IMG/VR virus record: IMGVR_UViG_2703718815_000003
Length of the DNA stretch: 64,000 nucleotides
From: a virus
Lineage: Duplodnaviria; Heunggongvirae; Uroviricota; Caudoviricetes
Strand: one strand, 5' to 3'
Both the position numbers and the translations under genes were made by a program. Position 1 is the first letter of the stretch. Each line of letters begins with the position of its first letter. Below the pieces are notes generated by a model that was not told the origin of the DNA, did not search any database, and was given only the letters and a program-made list of their open reading frames with translations. Below, piece after piece: positions 10,433 through 11,197 of the stretch.

Positions 10433-10732
10433 TATATTGAAGCTATATATTTTTGAACTCTATCTCTTAAAAAAGATGTTAATAAGATGCTAACTATTGA
10501 AAGGCATAAATATATACAATTCAAACAAACGTTATTTTTAACAAATTTTTTCTTCCCATTGACTTTTTCGAACGCCTTGTCCGGTCTAAAGTGCGCAGAA
10601 GTCACTTTTTCCTTCCTGAGTTATCCACAGGCTTATGCACTTGCATGAAAAATCTATTCACACTATCTTAATTCGCAAGACACTGATGTTGCAGTATTGA
10701 GGGTATGTTGGGTTAAAAATAGACATTAAAAA

Positions 10733-10766
10733 GCCCAGTTGACTAGGCTGGGCTTTTTAAAAGGAA
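10733..10766. terminator. bidirectional hairpin terminator
   Basis: aaaaagcccag...ctgggcttttt. Confidence 0.5.
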
Positions 10767-10789
10767 ACAGAGTTTGCGGCTCTGTTCCT

Positions 10790-10990
10790 GAGCCATAAGT
10801 ATCTGGCGACTGAATTAAGATTAACCGAATGTACTGGATTCATCAAGAAAGGTTGAGTGGTCATACCAGGTAATAATGACCATTTACTAAACATCGTTGT
10901 TCTCAAAGAAGATTTAAGTCCAGGTTTTTGGTGACTCTAAAACCTTACCTTAACTCGAAATCGTGCCGTAAGTATCTGGCGACTACAGAT
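10790..10990. repeat. direct repeats (C)GTAAGTATCTGGCGACT x2 plus AATCGTGCCG x2
   Basis: Copies near 10794-10812 and 10968-10988; AAATCGTGCCG near 10958 and inside small ORF near 11087. Confidence 0.45.
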
Positions 10991-11058
10991 ATTGCAACTG
11001 CAAAGGCAAGCCCAAAGGTATTTGCAGCTAGGCGCGATAAAACTAAGTGAGGCCTGTT

Positions 11059-11142
11059 ATGGTTAACTTACTGTTCAAAATCGTGCCGCCGATGTTCGCG
11101 ATTATCAAAGCGATCATTGAGTACGTAAACCAGCGTCCATAA
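11059..11142 (+). CDS. small hydrophobic peptide (27 aa), candidate small membrane protein
   Basis: ATG with GTGAGG RBS; MVNLLFKIVPPMFAIIKAIIEYVNQRP*; hairpin + T-run immediately downstream; not in 60-aa track. Confidence 0.35.
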   Translation: MVNLLFKIVPPMFAIIKAIIEYVNQRP

Positions 11143-11149
11143 CGCTAGT

Positions 11150-11185
11150 TGCTACAGGCCCCATCAAGAGCATGGGGCCTCTTTA
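11150..11185 (+). terminator. hairpin terminator
   Basis: ggccccat...atggggcc stem followed by tctttat. Confidence 0.4.
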
Positions 11186-11197
11186 TCGTACTATTGC

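Follow-up and report, generated by a model that had tools for sequence, protein, structure and literature searches.

Among toxin-antitoxin systems of type I, the database T1TAdb sets apart a class termed 'antisense RNA 5' of the mRNA, non-overlapping', to which ShoB, TisB, Zor and DinQ are assigned. These systems with a divergent, non-overlapping small RNA (sRNA), namely tisB, dinQ, zorO and shoB, are regarded as chromosomal loci of narrow distribution, hardly ever carried by mobile elements, and a 2024 survey did not find tis/istR on plasmids. Of the described members, zorO is known to have a leader that represses translation and to require a single-stranded site far upstream. Here we describe a locus of related layout in a 64,000-nucleotide stretch of DNA (hereafter, the window) from the virus record IMGVR_UViG_2703718815_000003, the source of which is a ~108-kb phage-plasmid of E. 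coli. Positions 10726-11186 of the window, in our judgement, probably form a type I toxin-antitoxin-like module consisting of a divergent sRNA and a small, membrane-type peptide of 27 amino acids (aa). The extent of the module, which makes up the right-hand 460 bp of a region (10440-11190) flagged as repeat-rich and non-coding in an initial annotation, was established by comparison with ~30 distinct relatives found in plasmids, prophages and phage-plasmids of six enterobacterial genera. The coordinates of all features are collected in Table 1.

The existence of an sRNA gene of ~85 nt is supported, at the level of comparative sequence analysis, by a conserved promoter, a conserved stem-loop and a conserved terminator. 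When 17 distinct loci were aligned, no other promoter position, on the plus or the minus strand, was as well conserved as the minus-strand sigma-70 promoter of this gene (mean position weight matrix (PWM) score 9.4, minimum 8.6), and transcription would start at the A of AGUCGCC at 10811, 7 nt past the -10 element. Downstream of its short 5' tail, the RNA contains a stem-loop of the composition GGAAACAGAG-CCGCAAA-CUCUGUUUCC, followed by a 13-bp terminator with a U-run, so that the transcript would end near 10727; the minimum free energy (MFE) of the fold is -34 kcal/mol (z = -5.85 against shuffled sequences). Both helices contain compensatory pairs in the consensus structure over the 17 loci, in stem-loop 1 at pairs 25-49 (UA, GU, AU) and 30-44 (AU, GC, UA), and in the terminator at pairs 62-82 (GC 9, AU 8) and 66-78 (GC 11, AU 5). 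With a covariance model derived from the relatives, the minus strand of 10725-10811 reaches 94 bits, and no second copy of the sRNA is detected in the window, in P1, in P7 or at the K-12 dinQ-agrAB locus. The terminator itself, a 13-nt perfect inverted repeat (10726-10738 / 10748-10760) flanked by A5 and T5, is the bidirectional one already recognized in the initial annotation.

The 5' end of the sRNA is the reverse complement of a sequence in the leader of the peptide mRNA, over its first 20 nt in the window and over 24 nt in most relatives. In the DNA, this relationship appears as a long repeat, TAAGTATCTGGCGACT, with two copies that are exact over 16 nt (10796-10811 and 10969-10984; chance expectation 0.00 in 100 window shuffles), are spaced by 173 nt and can be extended to 20 nt, GCC[A/G]TAAGTATCTGGCGACT, with 19/20 identical positions. 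The initial annotation had reported these copies, quoting a first base (G) that is an A in copy 1, and had pointed to their complementarity; as DNA they are direct repeats, and only the transcription of one copy from the other strand makes the RNAs complementary. The interaction prediction suggested there for the two copies gives a duplex in the window with 20 bp and -38.5 kcal/mol, compared to a mean of -18.3 (standard deviation 2.8) for shuffled seeds, none of which (0/1000) reach the real value. Among 12 distinct pairs of seed and target, 96.9% of the cells of the 24-bp intermolecular helix are standard base pairs, as opposed to 27-34% with a slid partner, and 9/24 pairs are altered on both sides, a level reached by 0/500 shuffles. 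Five distinct seed/target variants can be recognized that always match each other and differ by lineage: TAAGTATCTGGCGACT in the window type, AATGTATCTGGCGACT in most relatives, AATGTATCTGGCAGC in the Citrobacter loci L008 and L024, AATGTATCCGG[C/T]GACT in locus L009, and the very different pair CGTGCCGTAAAACACTGGCGAC in locus L034. Comparison of the sequences thus supports the maintenance of the 20-24 bp sRNA-leader complementarity by covariation.

The leader in which the target is embedded is itself extensively structured, as judged from the consensus structure obtained with RNAalifold for 15 loci. The target lies partly in the loop of a hairpin that is preserved with a different sequence (CACUG/CAGUG) in L034, and the conserved hairpin that follows it carries a compensatory double change, CUGCCAA/UUGGCAG, in L096. 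By analogy with tisB and zorO, the unpaired C/A-rich stretch on the 5' side of the sRNA site is a candidate ribosome standby site. The second duplication named in the initial annotation, that of AAATCGTGCCG, is also present, at 10958-10968 and, within the open reading frame (ORF), at 11078-11088 (chance expectation 0.03). It is explained by the potential of GGCGCGAU to pair with either of the two copies of AUCGUGCC: the leader pairing is seen in the consensus structure, and the pairing with the ORF copy in the MFE structure of the window mRNA, where it encloses the Shine-Dalgarno sequence (SD) and the AUG in a stem-loop. Among the relatives, 91% and 79% of the cells of the two alternative stems are paired, compared to 20-60% in slid controls. 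A switch built on the duplicated AAATCGTGCC was not retained as a supported finding, its covariation being no higher than in the controls, and we infer it only as a part of the mechanism outlined below.

Several further sequence elements lie in or near these pairing regions. Between the sRNA promoter and the leader there is an inverted repeat, GTCAT-N12-ATGAC (10853-10883), the arms of which are conserved and the loop variable in three window-type variants, with other palindromes in other lineages; an operator and an RNA hairpin are both conceivable roles for it. Within the leader, on the minus strand, a promoter-like site occupies 10969-10997 (TTGCAA at 10997-10992, a 17-nt spacer and TACTTA at 10974-10969); in the relatives its -10 element is TACATT and the mean PWM score is 6.7. 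Such a site could give rise to a longer cis-antisense RNA, reminiscent of IstR-2. The covariance model of the sRNA family also produces a weak match (21.7 bits, E = 0.006) to the antisense of the mRNA leader (window 10912-10984, minus strand), and, according to RNAduplex, the leader sequence CCAGGUUUUU pairs with the 5' half of the sRNA terminator as well; on account of these two observations, the leader and the sRNA gene look like an old direct duplication of ~75 nt in which only the seed was kept exact. Far from the module, at 52937-52952 on the minus strand, the window contains a further sequence close to the sRNA target, TACGTATATGGCGACT, the third of its kind and with 2 mismatches, on the coding strand of a gene for a 411-aa AAA_5 ATPase (52164-53399, minus strand). 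Chance alone would give about 0.03 such matches, and the sequence could be a target in trans or a coincidence.

The reading frame for the peptide MVNLLFKIVPPMFAIIKAIIEYVNQRP was likewise correctly delimited from the start, as an ORF of 27 codons (11059-11142) with a good ribosome-binding site (RBS; GAGG 6 nt before the ATG) and a terminator of its own (hairpin 11156-11180). The peptides of the family conform to the pattern M-[VA]-x-L-[LI]-x-K-I-V-P-P-x(4)-I-x(2)-A-I-[IV]-[ED]-Y-V-N-Q-R-P. Compared to the Kluyvera copy L028, the window gene shows 9 synonymous and 2 non-synonymous differences (proportions pS 0.51 and pN 0.03); pN/pS is in the range of ~0.06-0.3, and among nine 27-codon versions the variable columns are distributed 14/6/23 over the three codon positions. 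By these sequence measures, the peptide is under purifying selection. A longer, GTG-initiated reading of 31 aa was discarded, as it is not conserved in the relatives. With a grand average of hydropathy (GRAVY) of 0.86 and an <H> of 0.60 for its most hydrophobic 18-mer, the peptide can be drawn as a hydrophobic helix with one polar stripe, given that N3, K7, K17, E21, N24 and Q25 fall in a 100-degree arc of the helical wheel. By analogy with the small toxins of type I systems, it would be a membrane-active toxin.

Pfam, NCBIfam and PHROGs contain nothing meaningful for this peptide, an exact database look-up returned only entries named 'uncharacterized' or 'hypothetical', and the peptide strings are absent from the literature searched, though they may be listed among the more than 2,000 supplementary candidate ORFs of Fozo et al. 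2010. Being short, unannotated and absent from these three collections, the ORF might be taken for a chance reading frame next to a leftover, functionless duplication. We consider this hardly credible for a sequence that has been kept in six genera, at 68-92% DNA identity and with a third-position bias, that is accompanied by conserved promoter and terminators, and that comes with covariation both of the intermolecular duplex and of three RNA helices.

In many relatives (L005, L007, L008, L024, L054, L086, L090 and others) the mRNA also encodes, ahead of the window-type peptide, a paralog of it, such as MQMLLLFLKLAHPVAVIIMTLLGYWKDR. In these tandem arrangements a type A peptide, MQMLLLFLKLAHPV...YWKDR, precedes the window-type peptide B; L006 and L009 have A only and the window has B only, and in L084, L093 and L097 the start codon of type A is ATA instead of ATG, with B intact.

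The relatives were identified by several routes. A blastn search of plasmids yielded diverged copies with 68-84% identity in plasmids of Kosakonia, Citrobacter and Enterobacter, and the leader pattern AACTGCAAAGG-N14-TTTGCAGC revealed further copies in Citrobacter, Kluyvera and viral contigs of IMG/VR. When genome contigs were scanned with the leader-hairpin pattern, most of the hits were chance palindromes, and the real ones came only from Citrobacter, Kluyvera and one mislabelled metagenome-assembled genome (MAG). The contig JAEWTL010000044.1 (L025, 'MAG: Bacillota bacterium') contains an E. coli-type module as well as the S24 gene with its LexA box, at high identity to the window, the probable cause being a mis-binned or contaminated MAG. 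The carriers include phage-plasmids, integrated prophages and an F-type conjugative plasmid of Kosakonia, where the module lies beside repA. At all these loci the elements follow one another in a shared order: sRNA terminator, stem-loop, repeat copy 1, divergent promoter and a variable stretch of ~100 nt, and then, on the mRNA side, leader hairpin, repeat copy 2, conserved hairpin, one or two small ORFs and terminator. A pattern for the sRNA alone retrieved 15 additional copies, and wherever enough flanking sequence was available (13/13 of the additional sRNA genes) the target, the leader and the ORFs follow; no locus lacking the sRNA was found among the relatives examined. Strict co-occurrence of the sRNA and the peptide gene is therefore supported by the comparison of these sequences. 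The conserved promoter and terminator of the sRNA, the covarying duplex and the purifying selection on the peptide jointly support the resemblance to type I toxin/antisense-RNA loci that the initial annotation had put forward as a speculation.

A mechanism can be proposed that would accommodate these elements. The 5' tail of the sRNA would first contact the loop GCGACUA of the target hairpin, and the resulting duplex would block the adjacent C/A-rich, single-stranded loading (standby) site. Formation of the duplex would also open the stem UCGUGCC/GGCGCGA, such that GGCGCGAU could re-pair with the ORF copy of AUCGUGCC and close the SD and AUG; at 20-24 bp, the duplex may, in addition, be a substrate for RNase III. 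Once the supply of sRNA falls, the peptide would be made and inserted into the inner membrane, and growth would be arrested. The benefit to the carrier, at a guess, would be retention of the phage-plasmid or prophage, or an arrest triggered by stress or infection.

Several points weigh against the identification of the module as a toxin-antitoxin system. Literature searches gave no transcript, toxicity or repression data for it, and profile comparisons detected no homology between the peptide and known toxins. In the stretch that separates the sRNA promoter from the leader, no conserved sigma-70 promoter of reasonable score is found for the peptide mRNA (best mean PWM score 2.5), and a promoter scan gave none for it either. 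Although the sequence allows both alternative stems of GGCGCGAU, their covariation is not above that of shuffles, and the ORF-side stem has a C.A mismatch in several relatives. Gene conversion between direct repeats could account for part of the covariation in the intermolecular helix, since the two RNA partners are direct repeats in the DNA. The differences between the DNA copies are mostly transitions that leave G.U pairs in the RNA duplex (positions 17/40, 18/39, 19/38, 5/52 and 24/33), as predicted by selection on RNA pairing and not by simple homogenization of repeats, a pattern that argues for selection at the RNA level, short of proof. Finally, the hydrophobicity of the peptide is below that of DinQ, TisB and ZorO, and a Pro-Pro pair is conserved in the middle of its helix.

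The last point is also the one at which a different function for the peptide has to be considered. The module could encode a small membrane protein that is tuned by the sRNA and is not toxic, a phage or plasmid 'moron' that modulates the timing of lysis, superinfection exclusion or a membrane protein of the host. Such a role would sit well with a hydrophobicity below that of the classical type I toxins, with the conserved PP motif and with the position of the module among accessory prophage genes, and the structural and comparative evidence as such speaks for regulation and coding, not for toxicity. Against it stands the lack of sRNA-less loci among the relatives examined. To our knowledge, moreover, a strongly promoted divergent sRNA whose target is in a structured, long leader and far upstream of the RBS, in combination with tandem paralogs, has been described only for type I toxins (tisB, zorO, dinQ, shoB), and this restriction counts against a non-toxic peptide. 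On balance we regard the non-toxic alternative as unlikely and favor the toxin-antitoxin-like interpretation of the module.

The initial annotation had also placed the locus next to an SOS-controlled promoter. The LexA box, TACTGTATACACATACAGTA, is indeed there, and the equivalent site in the P1 record is annotated as the LexA site for humD/lxr; however, the box serves the S24 gene and is 550 bp away from the module. A similar neighborhood recurs in the family: most distinct loci have a perfect CTGT-N8-ACAG motif 0.6-1.5 kb upstream, by an S24/UmuD-, DinI- or lF-82-like gene, with such a box and its gene recorded for the window (10007-10432), L007, L028, L034, L037, L044, L070, L086, L091, L107 and L115, in at least four different sequence contexts. 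At ~25 unrelated control loci, obtained as chance matches, no upstream LexA box was found. The association of the module with SOS genes is thus real, though the loci are not phylogenetically independent, and the link of the module to the SOS response is one of neighborhood only. Elsewhere in the window, at 57678-57693, there is one more perfect motif of LexA type, CTGTATAAGTAAACAG.

These data bear on the notion of a strict SOS toxin in the sense of tisB or dinQ, which LexA would repress directly, either from the box at 10413-10432, with a plus-strand transcript that runs on past the terminator, or through the conserved upstream promoter described below. The frequency of perfect upstream boxes in the relatives, with none in the controls, would be in line with it, as would a plus-strand promoter-like site that overlaps the LexA box and the lack of a recognizable promoter specific to the peptide mRNA. 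We nonetheless judge direct repression by LexA to be improbable: at no family locus is there a LexA box inside the module, nine loci have none nearby at all, and the loci are not phylogenetically independent; in the window the box sits over the promoter of the S24 gene and is separated from the module by a hairpin with U5 (10726-10765).

Contrary to the initial treatment of the flagged region as one locus, its leftmost 280 bp (10440-10720) are separate, non-coding DNA of P1/P7 type, only the right part being the module. This segment is ~80% identical to the upfN/upfO region of P7 and of a P1 variant and was found only in P1-like plasmids and in the phage-plasmid family of the window; the annotation of the homologous stretch of P1 gives 'two predicted DnaA boxes' and nothing else. 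The hexamers TTGCAT and TATCTT of the plus-strand promoter-like site in this segment are kept, with a diverged spacer, in L010, P1 and P7. At this position other family loci have a different, very well conserved element that includes a strong plus-strand promoter, TTGTAC-16-TA(G/A/C)AAT, with a mean PWM score of 9.84 and a minimum of 8.52 in 15 relatives (L005, L006, L007, L008, L009, L024, L028, L034, L037, L058, L072, L086, L090, L096 and L098). In its TTGTAC-16-TAGAAT form this promoter is placed 110-130 nt before the sRNA terminator, and it is followed by operator-like CATATAG / CTA(C/T)ATGTAG palindromic motifs and often by TTATCCACA. It could drive an RNA of ~90 nt that ends at the shared terminator, or a read-through transcript that encodes the toxin and is antisense to the sRNA. 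A more elaborate version, in which the locus is a three-promoter unit, the upstream promoter being equally conserved and using the bidirectional terminator jointly with the sRNA, and in which read-through from that promoter yields both toxin mRNA and an 'anti-antitoxin' RNA fully antisense to the sRNA, seems to us doubtful. Together with the recurrent location beside LexA-controlled genes (umuD/humD-like, dinI-like), it would turn the module into a switch that releases one or two paralogous membrane peptides upon SOS or prophage induction.

The initial observation that 10440-11190 is free of long ORFs holds, with the longest ones touching the region measuring 90 aa (10333-10605, minus strand), 57 aa and 53 aa; none of the three is annotated in any RefSeq, GenBank or PLSDB record. 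The 53-aa ORF (10487-10648) was rejected as a gene, as the differences by codon position are unbiased (11/6/8 and 8/8/8 against P7 and L010, respectively) and its stop codon is not kept in this comparison. In the RefSeq, GenBank and PLSDB records nothing is annotated between the S24 gene and the gene at 11198-11824, save for one submitter's 'hypothetical protein'. The 801 bases from 10397 to 11197 are 100% identical in plasmid pAVS0223-B and 96.8% identical in phage Cyrano, and are present in 119/5,426 complete E. coli genomes (110 on plasmids of ~100-115 kb, 10 chromosomal), such that ~2% of complete E. coli genomes carry the module. The "empty" 800 bp beside humD in such elements are, then, not empty.

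Table 1. Features of the module and of its surroundings, in window coordinates.
Feature	Position	Strand	Remarks
metG (methionyl-tRNA synthetase, full-length) and apbC/mrp	6678-9969		so annotated in RefSeq and phage records
S24/HumD-like peptidase gene	10007-10396	minus	Pfam PF00717
LexA box TACTGTATACACATACAGTA	10413-10432 (core 10415-10430)		overlaps promoter of the minus-strand S24/HumD-like gene
Non-coding P1/P7-like segment, outside the module	10440-10725		upfN/upfO region
DnaA-box-like motif TTATCCACA	10621-10629
DnaA-box-like motif TTATGCACT	10633-10641		overlaps -35 TTGCAT by one base
Promoter-like site	10641-10646 / 10664-10669	plus	TTGCAT, 17-nt spacer, TATCTT
Bidirectional terminator hairpin	10726-10760	both	sRNA terminator on minus; U5 also follows on plus
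sRNA of ~85 nt, putative antitoxin	10727-10811	minus	5' tail/seed, stem-loop 1, Rho-independent terminator
Repeat copy 1, 5' seed of the sRNA	10792-10811	minus	RNA 5'-AGUCGCCAGAUACUUAUGGC
Sigma-70 promoter of the sRNA	10818-10846	minus	-35 TTGATG 10846-10841, 17-nt spacer, -10 TAATCT 10823-10818
Leader hairpin 1, AGGUUU...AAACCU	10922-10945	plus	pair 8-31: 6 changes on both sides; pair 13-26: 2
Unpaired C/A-rich stretch 5' of the sRNA site	10946-10959	plus	consensus structure; relatives carry CACCCAAACAAGAAA
Long-range stem UCGUGCC / GGCGCGA	10961-10967 / 11031-11037	plus	consensus structure
Repeat copy 2, sRNA target in the 5' untranslated region	10965-10984	plus	75-94 nt upstream of AUG
Target hairpin	10971-10993	plus	loop GCGACUA complementary to extreme 5' end of the sRNA
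Conserved hairpin CUGCAAA-N16-UUUGCAG	10998-11027	plus	invariant in the 15 loci
GGCGCGAU	11031-11038	plus	pairs with AUCGUGCC at 10960-10967 (leader) or 11080-11087 (ORF)
Short stem UAAGU/ACUUA	11044-11048 / 11066-11070	plus	SD and AUG in loop
27-aa ORF MVNLLFKIVPPMFAIIKAIIEYVNQRP, putative membrane toxin	11059-11142	plus	SD GAGG 11049-11052
mRNA terminator-like hairpin	11156-11186	plus	equivalent hairpin 3' of the ORF in relatives
Next gene to the right of the module	11198-11824	minus

In its layout the locus falls within the T1TAdb class named at the outset: the sRNA start (10811) and the leader hairpin (10922) are divergent and ~110 nt apart, within the limit of <~300 nt for that class, and the sequence contains a gene for a hydrophobic protein of <60 aa together with a predicted, separate sRNA that is antisense to the mRNA. 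In sequence, the module appears to constitute a new family of type I-like layout that is unrelated to the described ones, and a blastn search (word size 11) of the 5,426 E. coli genomes returned 115 copies of the element only, and none of tisB, zor, dinQ or shoB. In this family the divergent-sRNA architecture is carried by prophages, conjugative plasmids and phage-plasmids from six or more genera of enterobacteria. Should the peptide be toxic, a new toxin/sRNA family would be added to those described, its lineage-specific seeds and targets would provide a natural set of variants for studies of sRNA specificity, and the stabilization of plasmid-prophages by such modules and their response to SOS would become testable questions.

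One of the systems closest to the module is tisB/istR-1, where the sRNA gene is also upstream, divergent and non-overlapping. The tisB mRNA is paired by its sRNA at a site ~100 nt upstream of the RBS, and the module resembles it in a pairing site far upstream, at 75-94 nt, in a structured leader with an enclosed translation start, and in a helix of 27-29 aa with one polar face; there is even a faint profile resemblance of the peptide to TisB residues 9-28 (hhalign probability 13%). The two differ in that the peptides have no significant homology, with no match of the module to TisB in Pfam or NCBIfam and none to IstR in Rfam at E <= 1, in that the module has no LexA box at its promoter, the nearest one being that of the S24 gene 550 bp away, and in that the module is found on phage-plasmids, plasmids and prophages.

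With dinQ/agrAB the module shares a peptide length of 27 aa and an sRNA 5' end that is complementary to the mRNA by way of a direct DNA repeat upstream of the toxin gene, a logic that we also read directly from the K-12 dinQ locus. The differences are again in sequence and regulation: DinQ is not homologous to the peptide (hhalign 0.2%), the family covariance model finds neither agrA nor agrB, and the module has no LexA box and a single copy of the sRNA. Membership of the sRNA in an Rfam family was considered and rejected, as the window gives sub-threshold matches only, to AgrB (RF02891; whole model, 27.6 bits, E = 0.11, gathering threshold 40) and to Thr_leader (terminator-driven); the sRNAs of relatives produce similarly sub-threshold matches to RNAI and OrzO-P, from which it follows that the AgrB match reflects a generic shape.

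Seeds of 18-19 nt are typical of zorO/orzO and shoB/ohsC, systems with the same organization as the module, in which the seed is 20-24 nt. Their proteins are unrelated to the peptide by profile comparison (hhalign probability 0.2% for ZorO and 1.6% for ShoB), OrzO-P (RF02083) gives 34 bits against a threshold of 60 in one relative and no match in the window, and blastn of the E. coli genomes revealed no DNA similarity to the shoB locus. Duplication has also taken a different form, since zor/orz duplicates whole toxin-sRNA pairs, whereas some relatives of the module carry two paralogous ORFs behind one leader. The hok/sok systems are more distant in structure, in that the sRNA of the module does not overlap the mRNA, a mok-like leader ORF is lacking, the peptide is half the size and does not match Pfam HOK_GEF (PF01848). 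What the module does have in common with hok/sok is its location, since it resides on conjugative plasmids and plasmid-prophages, elements for which post-segregational killing would be a sensible function.

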